Below are positions 8,072 to 43,861 of a DNA stretch of 64,000 bases, in pieces (the stretch's first letter is position 1; the number at the start of each line of letters is the position of its first letter). The notes beneath the pieces were generated by a model, which was given only the letters and a program-made list of their open reading frames with translations, was not told the origin of the DNA and made no database searches. The translations under genes and the position numbers were made by a program. Origin of the DNA: Candidatus Moraniibacteriota bacterium. Lineage in GTDB: Bacteria > Patescibacteriota > Minisyncoccia > Moranbacterales > UBA1568. Location: contig CP064975.1 in the NCBI GenBank assembly GCA_016699425.1, positions 130,979-194,978 on the forward strand, given 5' to 3'.

Positions 8072-8092
8072 GCAGGGAACATTCATATTCTG

Positions 8093-8164
8093 TGCCCCGA
8101 GAGAGAATCGAACTCCCATCAAGACCTTAGAAGAGTCCTGCTTTATCCATTAAGCTATCGGGGC
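8093..8164 (-). tRNA. tRNA-Arg (anticodon TCT)
   Basis: Hand-folded cloverleaf with acceptor GCCCCGA/TCGGGGC, D-arm GCTT-AATGGATA-AAGC, anticodon stem GGACT/GGTCT with two G-U pairs, loop CTTCTAA and T-arm GGGAG-TTCGATT-CTCTC. CCA is not encoded. Confidence 0.8.
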
Positions 8165-8165
8165 G

Positions 8166-8274
8166 TATTCTTTTGTAAAAAATTTTTAGAAGACTCCTGC
8201 TCCCTGCCTGCCGGTAGGCAGGTATCCATTGAGCTACAGGGACGGTTCGAGCGGGGCAATCAAATATCCACAGG
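8166..8274 (-). pseudogene. Degenerate partial copy of the tRNA-Arg(TCT) 5' half (acceptor/D-arm/anticodon arm) interrupted by a family hairpin
   Basis: Minus-strand reading GTCCCTGTAGCTCAATGGATA-[CCTGCCTACCGGCAGGCAGG]-GAGCAGGAGTCTTCTAA parallels tRNA-Arg GCCCCGATAGCTTAATGGATAAAGCAGGACTCTTCTAA. There is no T-arm or 3' acceptor strand. Confidence 0.5.
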
Positions 8275-8346
8275 GGTGGCTAGAGGGAATCGGACCCTCG
8301 TTCACGGTACCACAAACCGTTGTCTTACCATTAGACGATAGCCACC
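8275..8346 (-). tRNA. tRNA-His (anticodon GTG) with encoded G-1
   Basis: G-1 pairs with C73, acceptor GTGGCTA/TAGCCAC, D-arm GTCT-AATGGTA-AGAC, anticodon stem ACGGT/ACCGT, loop TTGTGGT, T-arm GAGGG-TCCGATT-CCCTC. Confidence 0.8.
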
Positions 8347-8425
8347 ACTCTAGATACTTGATCGTCACCAAGATATTTTTGAGATACGCTCTAGCAGAAA
8401 AGGATTGTGAAAGGAGAATGGAATG

Positions 8426-8498
8426 TGGGTGCGGGGGGGATCGAACCCTCGACCGTTGGCTTAAGAGGCCACTGCTCTACCAACTGAGCTACGCACCC
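8426..8498 (-). tRNA. tRNA-Lys (anticodon CTT)
   Basis: Acceptor GGGTGCG/CGCACCC, D-arm GCTC-AGTTGGTA-GAGC, anticodon loop CTCTTAA and T-loop TTCGATC. One mismatch each in the anticodon stem and the T-stem. Confidence 0.7.
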
Positions 8499-34648: not shown

Positions 34649-34664
34649 ATACGATACTGCTTGG

Positions 34665-34736
34665 TGTCCCCGCGTGGAGTCGAACCACGGTCTCTTCCTT
34701 CGGAGGGAAGTGTCCTATCCGTTGAACTACGGGGAC
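34665..34736 (-). tRNA. tRNA-Arg (anticodon CCG)
   Basis: Acceptor GTCCCCG/CGGGGAC, anticodon stem CTTCC/GGAAG, loop CTCCGAA, T-arm with TTCGACT loop. Confidence 0.8.
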
Positions 34737-34809
34737 GGAAAAATTGAAATATATCTACTTGGTCTGACTGGAATCCCAGCCCGTAGAAGCTACGCTTCAA
34801 GCGTTGCTG

Positions 34810-34890
34810 GCGGGGAACCACGATTTCATCCTTCGGAGGTATGTGCCTCCCGCCCGAACGACGGACATCGTTCAGTCGGGCGGGTATCCA
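34810..34890 (-). pseudogene. Degenerate pseudo-copy of the tRNA-Arg(CCG) T-arm/anticodon region with a long imperfect hairpin
   Basis: GAACCACGATTTCATCCTTCGGAGG parallels tRNA GAACCACGGTCTCTTCCTTCGGAGGG. It continues into the palindrome CCCGCCCGA...TCGGGCGGG. Confidence 0.45.
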
Positions 34891-35069
34891 TTATACGACG
34901 AGCGCGAAGTACGACAGAGTATTTTCTTAAACAGAAACACAAAAACCCTATCACACATCGTGACCGAAAGGCAAACTGATTGTAACACAGAGGGATGTTT
35001 TTTCGATTGACAGCTCTGGACAGATGGGAGATAGTTGTCACGTGACATATTTCAAGGAAGGAGAAAATC

Positions 35070-35264
35070 ATGCGTGTGTTGGAGCGTCCGCGTGGTCGTC
35101 CGTGCGGTATTCTCGAGTTACTCTCTGGTGGTGTAGGAAAATCGACGCCAGAGTTACTCGAACAGGGAGTCCGTGTCCTAGTCCCTCCGCGAGAGAATAA
35201 TACAGGAGGGAGACTGAGTCAGTCCTTTGATCCCGATCGATGGGAGCAGGTAGCCGCTCAGTAA
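35070..35264 (+). CDS. Small hypothetical protein (64 aa)
   Basis: Strong SD AAGGAAGGAG 7 nt upstream of the ATG. Basic product. Confidence 0.35.
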   Translation: MRVLERPRGRPCGILELLSGGVGKSTPELLEQGVRVLVPPRENNTGGRLSQSFDPDRWEQVAAQ

Positions 35265-35366
35265 TAAGCAGTATCGGTGGCCTAGAGGCGCTTGAGGGAT
35301 TCCCTTTGGCGCCTCTCTCTATATCCATACATCCCGTCGAGCACAGTCCTGTGGCGCGTGTTTGAG

Positions 35367-36569
35367 CTAATGTTCGGGGACAAGGGTGGACCGGTCTTGG
35401 TAGAGGTAGAGATAGAGGTAAAAGGGGAGAAGTACTGCTACGAATAGAATGGCGATGCACAGAAATCCCAGTCGATAGGAGAGATGCTGAATCGCGAAAC
35501 CGAGTCCGAAACTGGCCACGGCGGTGACGGCCATGTCAATCTGTCCGGGTATGGAGAGGAGGGTTGCTTTGAACCGACTGTCCTTGATGATTTCGACGAG
35601 AAAGCTGGTACCGACCTGGCTCAGTCCCCATTGGAAGGCATTGATAGTGAGGAAGAGCGTCACGACAACCCAAGGGGAAGCGATGATCCCCAGGAGGAGG
35701 AGTTGGAACGCAAAGATGATCAACAGAAAAGCTTGGAAGTTGTAAATATCTCTGAAAGCCGTATGCAGTTTGCCGCTGTAGGCGAGCATCAGTGAAGCGA
35801 GTGCGCGGCCGATACCAAAGAAAACGCCGAACCAGATCACGGGGACCTCGAGTAATGATTGGTATGGGGCGCGGAATACCCCGACCGATACGAGAGTCCC
35901 AGTGATGATTCCCATGAAAATGGCGTGTCGAAAGTATCGCAAACGGAAACCCTCTCGGAGGACATCTCGAAAGTTTGTCACGCCCATTTCCTCGACATGT
36001 TCGGGGGTGACGGGTGGTTTGATCAGGGAGAAAGAAATGATCAAACCGATCACATCCAAGATGAGTCCGACCAAGAAAGGGAGCTTGTAGCTGAATTCGA
36101 CCAAGAAGGGGACGAGCACCATCAGGACGACGGGTACGGCAAATCCGAGCGAACTCGCTTTCCCCATCACTTTTGAATATTCCTTTTCTCGTCCCAGGGC
36201 ACGGAGCGTTTCGTGCATGAAGGCGCTGCCGGTGCCACTATGAAACGCCTGACTGAGACTGAGGAAAACTCCGCCCAAGATGAGGAGGTATACATGGTTG
36301 GCGATGAGGAGGAAAAAAGAGGAGAGCACCATAAAGACTCGGGCGACGATGAGGGTTTCCTTGTGTCCGAGCTTGTCTGCGAAATATCCACTAGGTACTT
36401 GAAAGAGGAAACCAGCAATGCTTCCGATGAGCAGTATGGTGCCGATCCATTGAGGGGTGACTTCGGGGATAGTGAGATAATAGGCACCCAAGATTGCCAC
36501 GAAAACACGCTTATTCGTGATGAGGATAAGCGTGTACTTCCAAATGTTACTCTGGAGTCCGGATCGCAT
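35367..36569 (-). CDS. MFS-family transporter
   Basis: About 12 TM helices. The start is placed at the Met at 36569 because the longer ORF (to 36626) would overlap tRNA-Arg(GCG). Confidence 0.7.
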   Translation of the reverse strand: MRSGLQSNIWKYTLILITNKRVFVAILGAYYLTIPEVTPQWIGTILLIGSIAGFLFQVPSGYFADKLGHKETLIVARVFMVLSSFFLLIANHVYLLILGGVFLSLSQAFHSGTGSAFMHETLRALGREKEYSKVMGKASSLGFAVPVVLMVLVPFLVEFSYKLPFLVGLILDVIGLIISFSLIKPPVTPEHVEEMGVTNFRDVLREGFRLRYFRHAIFMGIITGTLVSVGVFRAPYQSLLEVPVIWFGVFFGIGRALASLMLAYSGKLHTAFRDIYNFQAFLLIIFAFQLLLLGIIASPWVVVTLFLTINAFQWGLSQVGTSFLVEIIKDSRFKATLLSIPGQIDMAVTAVASFGLGFAIQHLSYRLGFLCIAILFVAVLLPFYLYLYLYQDRSTLVPEH

Positions 36570-36584
36570 GATACAAATAAATGG

Positions 36585-36657
36585 TGCGCTCGGCAGGAAT
36601 CGAACCTGCGACCCTCTGGACCGCAACCAGATGCTCTATCCACTGAGCTACGAGCGC
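36585..36657 (-). tRNA. tRNA-Arg (anticodon GCG); CCA encoded (to 36582)
   Basis: Acceptor GCGCTCG/CGAGCGC, D-arm GCTC-AGTGGATA-GAGC, anticodon stem TCTGG/CCAGA, loop TTGCGGT, T-arm GCAGG-TTCGATT-CCTGC. Confidence 0.75.
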
Positions 36658-36747
36658 AAAAAAAGAGTCGAGAACGAAGAATCTTGAATCTGGGTTATCG
36701 TCTCTCTTTCGAAATTCTAGATTCTACACTCTAGACCCTTTCGAGAA

Positions 36748-37227
36748 CTAAATATGCAGCATTTTCTCCAGGGTGTCAATGATGGTCGGTTCGTGCTTCT
36801 CCTCCGGGACATAATCAAGCAAGAGGTTTCGGAGCTCTTCGGCCGGGACATCACCGATCGGGATATGGATGTAGGGTGAGATGATGCCGTTGGAGTGGAG
36901 GCTGAGCACGCCCTCGAGCGGTGACTCTTCATAGATCCAAAATGAATGAATGTCTTCGAAGTCGTAGAGTGTCTTGCCGCCGAGTATGCCCTTGCTCGTG
37001 ACGGCGAACTCGAACTCGCGCGGGTCACGGGTGAGGAAGAGATAGCCGACGATACCGATCAAGAAGAACGTGATCGCCATGATCGGGCTATTGGTGAAGA
37101 TCGCGTAGGCGATGATGAGCGCGAGGAGAACAGTCGAAACCATCAAACCGCGCGGGTTGGGCCGGACATGGATGTGTTCCGGCGCGCGCCACGACAAGAG
37201 GGGAGTACCGGCGAGCATTGGTTCCAT
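36748..37227 (-). CDS. Hypothetical membrane protein (2 TM plus soluble C-terminal domain)
   Basis: 159-aa ORF with TM helices near residues 30-75. No motif recognised. Confidence 0.5.
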   Translation of the reverse strand: MEPMLAGTPLLSWRAPEHIHVRPNPRGLMVSTVLLALIIAYAIFTNSPIMAITFFLIGIVGYLFLTRDPREFEFAVTSKGILGGKTLYDFEDIHSFWIYEESPLEGVLSLHSNGIISPYIHIPIGDVPAEELRNLLLDYVPEEKHEPTIIDTLEKMLHI

Positions 37228-37332
37228 AGAGTATGTGAATATTTCTTTTTATTCACTATACCATGATTTGTCCTGTCCGCGATCCCGTCAGAGAGCGGGG
37301 AACCTTCGGTACCTTGCCCTATCCAATCAAAG

Positions 37333-37419
37333 CGGAAGCGGAAGGATTCGAACCTTCGGTACCGTTTCCGGTACTGCAGTTTTCAAGACTGCTGCCTTCA
37401 ACCGCTCGGCCACGCTTCC
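37333..37419 (-). tRNA. tRNA-Ser (anticodon TGA), class II long variable arm
   Basis: Acceptor GGAAGCG/CGCTTCC, anticodon stem GCAGT/ACTGC, loop CTTGAAA, a variable arm of about 18 nt and T-loop TTCGAAT. Confidence 0.8.
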
Positions 37420-37487
37420 GCTCTGATAAGATAGTTTAGTTTTTCCGCCAGAGGCGGGATTGCTGTTTATAACTACATTGTAATGAC

Positions 37488-37606
37488 ATGTAGATAAACA
37501 GGGAACAAGACTGCTGCCTTCCCTGCCCGCCTTCGGAGGGAACCACTCGGCCACTCCTCCGCTTTCATAAGATACCCTTCAATCCCACCCGGCGGACCAC
37601 GCTTCC
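37488..37606 (-). pseudogene. Two degenerate partial copies of the tRNA-Ser(TGA) 5' region separated by a hairpin
   Basis: GACTGCTGCCTT-[CCCTGCCCGCCTTCGGAGGG]-AACCACTCGGCCACTCCTCCGC parallels the tRNA segment GACTGCTGCCTTCAACCGCTCGGCCACGCTTCCGC. A second copy (GGCGGACCACGCTTCC) lies at about 37590-37606. Confidence 0.5.
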
Positions 37607-37626
37607 CTTAGGTTATTTATCCTAGG

Positions 37627-37698
37627 TGCCCCGAGAGAGAATCGAACTCCCATTGCCGGTTCCGAAGACCGGAGCTTTATCCATTAAGCTATCGGGGC
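37627..37698 (-). tRNA. tRNA-Arg (anticodon TCG)
   Basis: Acceptor, D-arm and T-arm are identical to tRNA-Arg(TCT). The anticodon arm differs: stem CCGGT/ACCGG, loop CTTCGGA. Confidence 0.8.
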
Positions 37699-41322: not shown

Positions 41323-41365
41323 AAGTGGCCTGCCCGTCCGAAGCTGGAATTTTCAGCGAAGGCGG

Positions 41366-41407
41366 GTCGTGTTCCGCGAGACCCGCGCGGTCGAGTACGC
41401 CAGGTAG
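41366..41407. repeat. Displaced GC-rich re-coded copy of the rny 3' end (encodes VVFRETRAVEYAR-stop out of frame with rny)
   Basis: The hand translation of 41366-41407 is identical to the final 13 residues of RNase Y plus a stop. It lies 44 nt downstream of the real stop, and its codon usage matches the bulk genome. Confidence 0.65.
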
Positions 41408-41488
41408 TGAAATTTCGACGAGCGAAGCTTGATTGCTATAAAAACAACACTTGGGAGTTGTTTTTATATGTCGAAATTCTACTACCTG
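41401..41488. repeat. 88-bp MITE-like palindromic element (19-bp terminal inverted repeats CAGGTAGTGAAATTTCGAC / GTCGAAATTCTACTACCTG, inner 9-bp-stem hairpin)
   Basis: Near-perfect 19-bp inverted repeats (two mismatches) enclose a core with AAAAACAAC...GTTGTTTTT. The left repeat starts inside the displaced rny end. Confidence 0.55.
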
Positions 41489-41679
41489 GTACGCCCGCTA
41501 ATACAGCTTCTAGGTTGTAGTGGGTAGCTTGTAGGCGGTAGCTGGTTGCGTGTGGGTTGTAAGCGGGTAGGGATGAGAAAATACAGAAAAGAGCAGGTTC
41601 CCGAGATGGGCTTGCCTGCCGGTAGGCATGAATTTTGCTTTATGTAAAGCAAAAATACTGATTCTAGTGGCAGCGGTTC

Positions 41680-41708
41680 TTGACAGAATCCCTGCGGGGT
41701 GCTACCAT
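41680..41708 (+). promoter_or_regulatory. Sigma70-like promoter (TTGACA-17 bp-TACCAT)
   Basis: Consensus -35, a 17-bp spacer and -10 TACCAT. It predicts a transcript start near 41715. Confidence 0.5.
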
Positions 41709-41714
41709 GTGGCT

Positions 41715-41979
41715 ACCTTTGATTCGCGCTTCCATGAGAAGACGGTCAGGGGGTGGTAGTGTCCCATTGTCGTTCTTGTTTGTGTTACTGTTCTCACTGT
41801 TTGTTCTGTTTGTTCGCAGGAGTTCGCAGGGGCCTGGTGCGCACCGCGCCCCGAAACCATTCTGGTACCCTTTGCACCACCCATATCGCCGCGTCTGATC
41901 AACGCAGCACCCAACGTCCGTAGTGGATTACTTGAGGGACTCCAAACCCCTCGGAATCGTCTACGGACTTTTCTTTATT
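41715..41979 (+). ncRNA. Candidate ~265-nt small RNA or short-ORF transcript bounded by a promoter and a terminator
   Basis: The unit runs from the predicted transcript start to a terminator at 41916-41979 (GTCCGTAG...CTACGGAC followed by TTTTCTTTATT, with an inner GAGGG/CCCTC stem). The only ORF is a 72-aa Arg-rich low-complexity one. No homology recognised. Confidence 0.3.
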
Positions 41980-42268
41980 ACTGCATTGTTGACTAGATAG
42001 CACATGGGTGCTATTTTTTCTTTTCATTAACAACAGGAGATTTTCATGGACAGGGAATGGGACTGGTGGGTGAAGTCATTTATCTTGCTTCCGATCGAAC
42101 AAGGCCGGAAAGACTTGGAAACGCGACCCAATCGCGGTGAGGCGGCACGAGTTCAGGTTGGGGACATCATCTGTTTCAACCGGTCTGTCCGTCGACGAGT
42201 CATCGCAATCCGGCACTACCAATCGTTCAAAACGATGCTTGTGGTTGAAAAGTCTGAACGTTTCTATC

Positions 42269-43473
42269 GTTACCGTTACCTTTTCAGTTGATAGTAGGGC
42301 GCTTTTTTTCAAAAAGTTTTACTGCTTCTACGCCTAGTTTTACTAATGTCTCAGGCCAGCGAGCCTGTTTTTTGATACTCAAAGAGAGTGAAGGGTAACC
42401 GTTCAAATATTTAAATTTAGCTTCACAATCTGTAAAAAGGCTTGGTTCTCCTCCGTATCATCCACGCATTCAACCAACACTGAGCCGAAGCAAAACTCTG
42501 AAAACCCTTGATCGTCTTCAGCCTCCCATTGAGATGGGAATTGTAGAGTTCAATGAGATTGGTGTTGTTGGGACAGCCTGGCAGCAGCAAGTAATTGAAG
42601 AGTTCCTCCTGCCGGTACGCTATCTCACTTACGATGTTTTTGAGCAGACGTTTCTCTCTCTTGATGCTCGCGGCAAAAGATCGAATGGCGTTCGTCACAT
42701 CCTCTCGTTCTCCAAACACGCTCTCCTTGAGAGCGTAAAAGAAGGGCCGGTATCGCTCTTCACTCCGCACCCGTAAAGCCACCCGGATATTCTCCAGGTA
42801 GTGGTTGTGGCAGAGCTGCAGCCGAGCCGACGGAAAAACCTTCAGGAGAGCCTTTTTCAGGCCAGAGCGGTCATCGGCGACCACGATCTGAAGATCATAG
42901 CCAAGTTGCTTCACTTGATGGAAGAAACGTGAGAAGGACACCTCATCTTCCGCTGTATACAAAGCCCCGAAGGGAATATCGTGGGTCAAGTAATCAATGC
43001 CGTAGAGAAAAGGAATCTTTCTCGCAAAGCCTTTGACCGCCACATACTTCCCATCCATGACAAGGATGCCCGAGAAGCGTCTCGGGTCACAGAGGGTTTG
43101 CGTCAGAGCGTCATTGGAAGGAAGTTGTGCTAATTCTCTTGTAACTCTCACGAAGGCTTGTTTTCCCGAGAGACCATATTCATCTCCTAATTTACGAAAC
43201 GGTACCCCATCAATATGCTCGATCCACAGCAGTCTCGGATCATGCCCGAAGTAACGAGAAAAAGAATGTTCACAAGCACGACACAGGTAGTGATGGCTGT
43301 AGCCTTGGGAGCCATTCTTCACCGTCTCACGACTGCTGCAGCGGGGACAGTGACGTGACCATTTTTTTTGACATGCTGAATGAAATTTAAGGCTTAAAGT
43401 CAACTTTACAGCCGGTTTGAGGCTCTAGTCTAACAAGAACAACACTTTCCATCAACTGAAAAGGTAACGGTAT
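42269..43473. mobile_element. Complete ~1.2-kb IS element with 22-bp terminal inverted repeats (TACCGTTACCTTTTCAGTTGAT) and a ~10-bp target-site duplication (CGTTTCTATC)
   Basis: The left repeat at 42271-42292 is the reverse complement of 43451-43472. The direct repeat CGTTTCTATC lies at 42259-42268 and 43474-43483. The element holds a single transposase ORF. Confidence 0.75.
42423..43403 (-). CDS. IS transposase with N-terminal zinc ribbon plus DDE domain (IS1595/ISNCY-like; family call tentative)
   Basis: CPRCSSRETVKNG...CRAC zinc ribbon. Candidate catalytic acidic residues in ILVMDGKYV, IVVADDRSG and HNHYLEN. Confidence 0.7.
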   Translation of the reverse strand: MTLSLKFHSACQKKWSRHCPRCSSRETVKNGSQGYSHHYLCRACEHSFSRYFGHDPRLLWIEHIDGVPFRKLGDEYGLSGKQAFVRVTRELAQLPSNDALTQTLCDPRRFSGILVMDGKYVAVKGFARKIPFLYGIDYLTHDIPFGALYTAEDEVSFSRFFHQVKQLGYDLQIVVADDRSGLKKALLKVFPSARLQLCHNHYLENIRVALRVRSEERYRPFFYALKESVFGEREDVTNAIRSFAASIKREKRLLKNIVSEIAYRQEELFNYLLLPGCPNNTNLIELYNSHLNGRLKTIKGFQSFASAQCWLNAWMIRRRTKPFYRL

Positions 43474-43861
43474 CGTTTCTATCCGGGCGCCACGAGAGAT
43501 GTCATTCTCGGAGCCCTCAGAGAAATGTATCGGACTGATCCCGAGCAGGGAGTGTTCTGCTTCGAACTCGAACGAATTAGTTAAGGGGGCATCATGTACC
43601 AATCGTGATGCCCTTTGAAATTTCGATTCTTGACAGAAATCCCAGAGGAGAGCCAAAAACTCCTGCCCGAAATGCGAAGTTCGTTTCAACTGAAAAATGA
43701 GTAAAGGTTTTTTCTTCAGGAGCAGGTTTCCCTAGAGTAGATTCGTATAACGTGGCAGGCGGGGCTTGCGCACTTCTAGATTTTGGCTTATTCTCGGGGC
43801 AAGGAGGCTGAGGTCTCCAAAAAGAATGAAACAATAAGCTAGAAAGAGAGGTGGAAAAATT

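Follow-up and report, generated by a model that had tools for sequence, protein, structure and literature searches.

Insertion sequences of the IS256 family, in the ISfinder description, span approximately 1.2-1.5 kb, end in terminal inverted repeats of approximately 20-40 bp and generate a target duplication of 8-9 bp. Gating of the transposase by slippage or frameshifting is well known from IS1, IS3, IS630 and IS1447. Here, an insertion sequence of the IS256/Mutator group is described from a 64,000-nt stretch of the Candidatus Moraniibacteriota bacterium genome CP064975 (contig CP064975.1, positions 130,979 to 194,978; hereafter the window, in the coordinates of which all features are given). 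The element (42269-43474, with the transposase on the minus strand) is 1206 bp as assembled and 1205 bp in its canonical form, and it splits a small, putatively ASCH-like gene. The locus is best explained overall as an IS256-type insertion with a transposase that is gated, clade-wide, by a run of eight adenines (A8) and with an extra T that is specific to this copy, a reading to which a probability of about 0.8 is assigned.

The described systems closest to such a gate include: (i) IS1447 and IS120 (IS3 subgroup) and the IS630 elements of Roseiflexus, in which a homopolymer (A9 in IS1447) lies at a frame junction and slippage is needed for the full-length transposase, and (ii) the ISMich2 group of prokaryotic Mutator-like elements, in which a conserved and apparently programmed -1 shift is reported (Guerillot et al. 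2014, PMC3942029) and which has in common with the present clade a conserved frameshift within a Mutator-superfamily transposase gene. In IS1447, slippage on the A9 run occurs experimentally in the two directions, +1 as well as -1, at ~16% each, and seven As suffice (PMC6211511). The run of IS1447/IS120 and IS630 joins OrfA to OrfB, which are two functional proteins, and is adjoined by a hairpin. By contrast, in the clade described here the run lies 2 nt after the start, the unshifted peptide is 5-18 aa, no hairpin is conserved and the correction needed is usually the loss of one base. The shift of ISMich2 differs in that it falls mid-gene between two long open reading frames (ORFs), with no start-proximal poly-A run. 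What sets the start-site device apart from known recoding is where the run lies, two bases downstream of the start codon. The large recoding surveys consulted do not mention IS256 or Mutator transposases, searches of the literature on IS256 recoding, zinc variants or Patescibacteria yielded only general precedents, and no description of a start-proximal A8 device in an IS256-like clade was found in the literature searched.

Transposase family and element ends

The preliminary description of the locus, which was made from the sequence alone, reported an insertion sequence encoding a zinc-ribbon plus DDE transposase, and this identification is upheld by Pfam, by a four-cysteine (4-Cys) domain and by a fold match. 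The listed 326-aa ORF (42423-43403, minus strand) matches Pfam PF00872 (Transposase_mut) at 44.3 bits compared to a cut-off of 21 and falls just under the threshold of the Pfam MULE model (27.3 vs 27.6 bits), while the reconstructed full-length protein passes the NCBIfam 4-Cys domain NF048018 (IS256_N_4Cys; 28.3 vs 27 bits). Residues D117, D177/D178 and E285 (326-aa ORF numbering) are invariant and, from their position, are predicted to be catalytic. The AlphaFold model of the canonical protein has a predicted local distance difference test (pLDDT) score of 85 and a predicted template modelling (TM) score (pTM) of 0.82, and the top five Foldseek hits of this model in the PDB are ISCth4 transposase chains (E = 1e-8 to 4e-6, TM 0.47-0.50, 15% identity). 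As assembled, the transposase frame occupies 42423-43361 (minus strand), from the TGG that follows the A run to a premature TGA, and encodes the 4-Cys zinc ribbon and the Mutator-type DDE core.

Within the IS256/Mutator group, the element is divergent and distantly placed, and its transposase has a 4-Cys ribbon at the N-terminus. Similarly to IS256 of Staphylococcus and ISCth4 of Clostridium thermocellum (PDB 6xg8/6xgx/6xgw, the best fold match), it has a Mutator-type DDE core (PF00872), a length of ~1.2 kb, inverted repeats of ~24 bp, a duplication of 8-9 bp and a lone transposase gene that stops in the terminal repeat; its own length of 1205/1206 bp and inverted repeats of 24 bp, together with a duplication of 9 bp at 13 loci, are those of the IS256 family. 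The differences are a protein of 362 aa compared to ~400, the N-terminal four-Cys ribbon, the 15% identity to ISCth4 and the A8 run that parts the start codon from the ORF. The family assignment is weakened by the scores to the IS256 equivalog NF033543 (58.3 bits vs a cut-off of 150) and to NF048019 ('IS256 family transposase, variant Zn-binding type'; 47.9 vs 150 bits), neither of which reaches its cut-off, and by the absence of plasmid-borne relatives in a tblastn search against plasmids. The overall architecture, in which a Mutator-type core comes after a zinc ribbon, is that of NF048019/NF048018, and the 4-Cys domain is over threshold; the full-length score of 47.9 compared to 150 suggests a separate, more distant clade rather than the equivalog. 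The IS1 and IS1595 families, which also combine a zinc ribbon with a DDE enzyme, are ruled out, as the catalytic core is of the Mutator type and only the ribbon type is shared: the shared N-terminal Zn domain model NF050000 passes (28.5 vs 28), and the IS1 equivalog scores 21 compared to 100. Among the loci compared, L081 (1482-1928) and L082 (1262-1708, both minus strand) carry a reverse-transcriptase gene on the opposite strand that overlaps the transposase 3' end by ~47 nt; the element there is a more distant relative (P0048, 52% identity, in-frame start), and the L081 product matches Pfam RVT_1.

The ends of the element were initially described as 22-bp inverted repeats within a ~10-bp target duplication. 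The 22-bp repeats are perfect on exact alignment: TACCGTTACCTTTTCAGTTGAT occupies 42271-42292, 43451-43472 holds its exact reverse complement, and even with up to 3 mismatches allowed the window contains no further match (0 expected from 100 shuffles). The direct repeat CGTTTCTATC flanks the inverted repeats at 42259-42268 and 43474-43483. Comparison with 40+ relatives places the true ends at 42269 and 43474, with the termini 5'-GATACCGTT...AACGGTAAC-3' (coding orientation) common to more than 40 related elements. The terminal repeats are 24 bp and 23/24 identical, and the one mismatch, at position 2 (GA vs GT), is conserved clade-wide. The repeat at the transposase 5' end occupies 43451-43474 (coding strand GATACCGTTACCTTTTCAGTTGAT), and that at the 3' end occupies 42269-42292 (GTTACCGTTACC...) and includes the codon (42284-42286) at which the full-length transposase stops. 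The tenth matching base of the direct repeat, C at 43474, is the terminal base of the element itself; thus, the target duplication is 9 bp and not 10. Its two copies, GTTTCTATC, match exactly at 42260-42268 and 43475-43483, and a single copy is present in the uninterrupted genes. An exact 9-bp duplication is observed in 13 clade loci including the window, one of 8 or 10 bp in none, and a duplication of 10 or 7 bp is ruled out by the clade-wide ends. The flanking repeat of the earlier account is therefore retained, with its size corrected to 9 bp and the inverted repeats extended to 24 bp with one mismatch.

Other copies or solo ends of the element are absent from the 64-kb window. An Rfam scan of 38-46 kb of the window gave no match, and a sigma-70 promoter scan of the element found nothing. 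The G+C content of the element is ~47%, compared to 53% for the window, which fits acquisition from a donor of lower G+C; relatives are noted in metagenome-assembled genomes (MAGs) of Doudnabacteria and Saccharibacteria. Approximately half of the related copies are without a target duplication (L012; L014, L017, L019 and L024 on short metagenome contigs; and others), which may reflect recombination between copies or chimeric assembly joins at repeat boundaries. L012 resides in a contig of long-read scale and, thus, may represent a genuine inter-copy rearrangement.

The start codon and the A8 run

The coding strand of the gene begins ATG TC AAAAAAAA TGG TCA CGT CAC TGT CCC CGC TGC. The ATG (43372-43374, minus strand) lies one base off the frame of the zinc-ribbon ORF, and its own frame encodes a 15-aa peptide. 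The A8 run (T8 on the plus strand) at 43362-43369 (minus strand) is the slippage or recoding site proposed from comparative sequence: dropping one A yields ATG TCA AAA AAA TGG, or MSKKW..., in frame with the zinc ribbon.

The arrangement was surveyed in 61 elements, namely the window copy and 60 relatives at 37-84% identity (including L001 and L009-L070). An ATG-NN-A8 start with the same 1-nt offset is present in 49 of the 61, down to 44% identity, and 57 of the 61 lack any ATG, GTG or TTG in frame ahead of the first CxxC; in several, a stop codon of the main frame overlaps the ATG. The first Cys codon always lies 12 nt downstream of the run, and in many leaders the out-of-frame ATG is preceded, at 10-14 nt, by GAAAGGA or TAAGGA, which resemble a Shine-Dalgarno sequence. 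Codon periodicity begins right after the run, in the frame that has no start (third positions at 1.58 bits compared to 0.94 and 0.90 in 43 distinct elements), and is absent upstream of the run in the same 43, while the ATG frame closes within 30 codons in 41 of them. AAG accounts for 33% of Lys codons elsewhere in the genes and is never used inside the run. The same N-terminus is encoded in frame by more distant relatives; L040 reads ATG A9 TGG (MKKKWHH) and L081 reads ATG AAG AAA CAC ... (MKKHNPRCPAC), both in frame. The features by which a slippage site is recognized from sequence are found here, i.e., a run of at least 7 A/T at a frame junction, conservation of its length and phase, and the lack of an alternative in-frame start. 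By these comparisons, the 5' offset is the native state of the family and not damage, although it does mean that the transposase, described at first as intact, has an ATG that is out of frame with its ORF. For members of this clade, gene callers either place the start at an internal codon, which splits the zinc ribbon, or call a pseudogene.

One copy of the 1205-bp IS256-type element has entered the ASCH-like gene and duplicated 9 bp of the target. If the element behaves as ISCth4 and IS256 do, its movement would be of the copy-out/paste-in type and would pass through a circular intermediate. Synthesis of the full-length transposase (MSKKWSRHCPRC..., the sequence with which the annotated sibling proteins of the genome also begin) would require the mRNA to lose one A or gain two. 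The likeliest route would be slippage of RNA polymerase on the A8 run, with correction by the ribosome, through a +1 shift or by sliding on the lysine codons, as the alternative; only the 15-aa peptide would be made when slippage fails, such that transposase levels would be kept low. Programmed slippage at A8, likely transcriptional, is the most likely mechanism as judged by comparison of the relatives.

Certain observations weigh against slippage at this site. A run of eight As ranks among the shortest for which slippage is known. Beside the run, no conserved hairpin is predicted (0 pairs by RNAalifold in 28 leaders) and, thus, hairpin-stimulated slippage is not supported. Three of the sibling transposases of CP064975 are annotated in frame, which implies A7, and the window copy has an in-frame TTG (43401-43403) located 30 nt upstream. 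As a true start, the TTG is ruled out by its absence from the nearest relatives (L001 and L017-L019).

The alternatives differ in the level at which the frame would be corrected. In a translational route, the ribosome would shift by +1 or slide on AAA AAA A with the mRNA unaltered; runs of lysine AAA codons do allow ribosome sliding and frameshifting (reviewed in PMC5009743), and the P-site tRNA-Lys would re-pair perfectly after a +1 slip. This route is nonetheless considered unlikely, as a +1 shift needs only ~4 As whereas eight are conserved, and the codon that follows the run in the zero frame is variable (ATG, ACG, ACA or ATA), with no conserved slow or stop codon. Furthermore, in L029 and L030 the A8 run is the same and the frame has to be corrected the other way, and polymerase slippage can supply both directions, as in the precedent of IS1447 (PMC6211511). 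These same points favor slippage by the polymerase. The run could instead serve as a phase-variation switch at the level of DNA, in which replication slippage to A7 would turn a copy on, as might be suspected from the A7 and A9 variants at a few loci and from the in-frame siblings, which may be real A7 alleles or Nanopore under-calls. Such a switch is improbable: recent insertions with perfect duplications carry A8 and not A7, all ten of the copies from short-read datasets are A8, the three A7 loci surveyed are still out of frame, and the in-frame siblings come from an assembly prone to under-calling of homopolymers. That the elements are simply dead pseudogenes, as an out-of-frame start is normally taken to mean, is scarcely credible, as the geometry recurs in so many elements of such low identity, the downstream frame is under purifying selection and identical copies have spread to new sites.

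Slippage at A8 is thus retained as the preferred reading. The balance of evidence moderately favors a clade of IS256-like elements, found here in Patescibacteria/CPR (candidate phyla radiation) genomes, that gates its transposase by a minimal start-proximal A8 device, such that the enzyme arises solely in the minority of transcripts or translation events in which one A is lost. The device, which involves neither a product from a second ORF nor an RNA structure that stimulates slippage, would act as an attenuator only, and somewhat better than even odds are given to its being a distinct, start-proximal form of programmed slippage.

Transfer RNA genes are clustered on the minus strand of the window at 8092-8498 (Arg-His-Lys) and 34662-37698 (Arg-Arg-Ser-Arg). 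The tRNA-Lys of the window has the anticodon CTT; a tRNA-Lys(UUU) would bear on the decoding of A runs.

The extra base at the 3' end and the sibling copies

The transposase is also not intact at its 3' end as assembled. One extra T on the coding strand (T5 compared to the canonical T4; A5 at 42434-42438 on the plus strand) switches the frame, such that the listed ORF ends in ...TKPFYRL* and a conserved 49-aa tail is cut off. The relatives all run past ...RRRTKPF into the conserved tail TDCEAKFKYLNG...KKRPTIN, the remnant of which lies out of frame at 42284-42436 (minus strand; F/TDCEAKFKYLNG...KKRPTIN, 49-50 residues of the C-terminus, together with the stop codon). The frame switch is located to the extra base by tblastn, and L001 and ten short-read copies are one base shorter. 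The latter, on ten contigs from ten sequencing runs, are 1205-bp elements that align to the window copy with 0 mismatches and one gap, which falls at the T run (T4). The tail holds invariant residues and is modelled with a pLDDT of 84-92; thus, its loss would probably matter.

CP064975 is a circular MAG (EsbW_18-Q3-R4-48_MAXAC.278_cln; Patescibacteria, Moranbacterales, UBA1568) of 1,217,328 bp, assembled with CANU from Nanopore R9.4.1 reads and polished with Racon, medaka and Illumina reads (Singleton et al. 2021). At least seven versions of the transposase are annotated in this genome (345, 375, 299, 247, 247, 225 and 208 aa; proteins QQR78061, 78101, 78284, 78813, 78886, 79195 and 79197). 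Compared at the level of protein, the five versions with readable breakpoints differ from the canonical sequence by 1-nt changes in short runs, while the 225-aa version is without the N-terminal part, a lesion with a position that is not readable from protein. That each sibling has a different frame-disrupting lesion suggests uncorrected Nanopore homopolymer errors in the repeats. The unique genes near the element are unbroken and free of frameshifts, the pattern expected if short-read polishing works outside of repeats and fails inside them.

Whether the copy is functional depends on the extra base. The preliminary description, of an intact and probably still active element, amounts to the reading that the copy is fully intact, autonomous and currently active, its transposase encoded by one unbroken ORF. 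In favor of this view, the copy has perfect ends and a perfect target duplication, the sequence is canonical apart from one homopolymer base, and that base may be an assembly error given the Nanopore R9.4.1 reads and the lesions of the siblings, which are mostly 1-nt losses in short runs. Against this view, the assembled ORF is without the conserved tail, an ORF that runs unbroken from the ATG is missing even from the canonical element, and the unbroken neighboring genes indicate that polishing was good outside of repeats; the view is given an even chance. A real frameshift, which would make this a freshly disabled and non-autonomous copy that is moved only by the transposase of its siblings, is rated a little lower. 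It would agree with T5 here compared to T4 in all other copies examined, with the conservation and confident folding of the lost tail, and with the frequency of decay among insertion-sequence copies. It is countered by the extra T being the sole departure from consensus over 1205 bp and residing in a homopolymer within a repeat of a Nanopore assembly, other copies of which have similar single-base lesions. The read chemistry and the differing lesions of the siblings mean that the 3' defect may be an artefact, and a Nanopore homopolymer error is accordingly judged slightly more probable than a real mutation would be. As both ends are intact, even a disabled copy could still be mobilized in trans by the siblings. 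More generally, single-base 'frameshifts' in the repeats of Nanopore R9 assemblies are not to be taken as biology in the absence of read-level support.

The copies from ten datasets have 0 substitutions and reside in at least 7 different flanking contexts. The presence of multiple copies, together with identical copies in differing contexts, indicates that the family is active. Thus, the early suggestion that the element is probably still active is well supported for the family, while the answer for this copy turns on the reality of the extra base.

The interrupted gene and wider significance

Removal of the insert and one repeat copy in silico restores a 107-aa ORF, as was first proposed, and an ORF of the same length is uninterrupted in two homologues (P0121, 91% aa identity; P0122, 75%). 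The 5' part of the gene lies at 42046-42268 and the 3' part, with the stop codon, at 43484-43584 (both plus strand), as defined by excision and by the empty site of the relatives; the insertion point is at approximately codon 75. The present chimeric ORF of 81 aa (42046-42291; QQR78812.1, IPJ68_00835) stops at a TGA (42289-42291) inside the left inverted repeat, in agreement with the earlier account. The comparison with relatives lacking the insertion, which that account had recommended, reveals the empty site: in the DNA of the relatives (92% and 75% nt identity), ...GAACGTTTCTATCCGG... occurs once, exactly at the junction, with a single CGTTTCTATC. The gene order (iPGM, RNase Y, the 107-aa gene and HU) is the same in the window and in the P0121 and P0122 contigs. 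The insertion is recent, as proposed, based on the perfect duplication, the split gene that is otherwise undamaged and the 0 substitutions compared to copies from ten other datasets.

The interruption of a gene is thus clear, while the label of an ASCH domain is reached only through transitive homology. The restored 107-aa protein has no match in Pfam or NCBIfam, and P0121, although named 'ASC-1-like (ASCH) protein' by JGI, likewise has none in Pfam. Of 60 homologues, 17 match Pfam ASCH (PF04266; best E = 2.3e-13), and a profile of the 60-member family matches the Pyrococcus structures 2z0t, 1s04 and 1xne at ~1e-21. Similarly to the ASCH proteins (PF04266; PH0355 2z0t, PF0455 1s04 and PF0469 1xne), the family is of ~110-aa single-domain proteins, with an end-to-end profile match (E = 6e-22); it differs in that the window protein and its closest homologues are below the detection limit of Pfam. 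The gene is, therefore, probably ASCH-like.

Upstream of the gene, the ~720 bp that separate it from RNase Y (41323-42045) have no ORF conserved with the relatives and no Rfam match, and they include tandem repeats (a 21-nt unit x3.1 at 41505-41570 and 9- and 10-nt units at 41797-41830). This spacer is partly conserved in the 92%-identical relatives, as a 580-bp gap, and amounts to only ~93 bp in the 75%-identical ones.

The insertion itself is ordinary, in that one small accessory gene is knocked out in one strain. Patescibacteria are usually considered poor in mobile elements, and the reduced genome of this group studied here, of 1.2 Mb, harbors at least 7 copies of an active insertion sequence. 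Recognition of the A8 recoding site would correct the mis-annotation of the clade by gene callers. If confirmed, the A8 device would be an unusually simple attenuator of transposition and would extend programmed slippage to the IS256/Mutator superfamily; it would also serve, in organisms not culturable alone, as a ready natural reporter for the fidelity of the polymerase or the ribosome.

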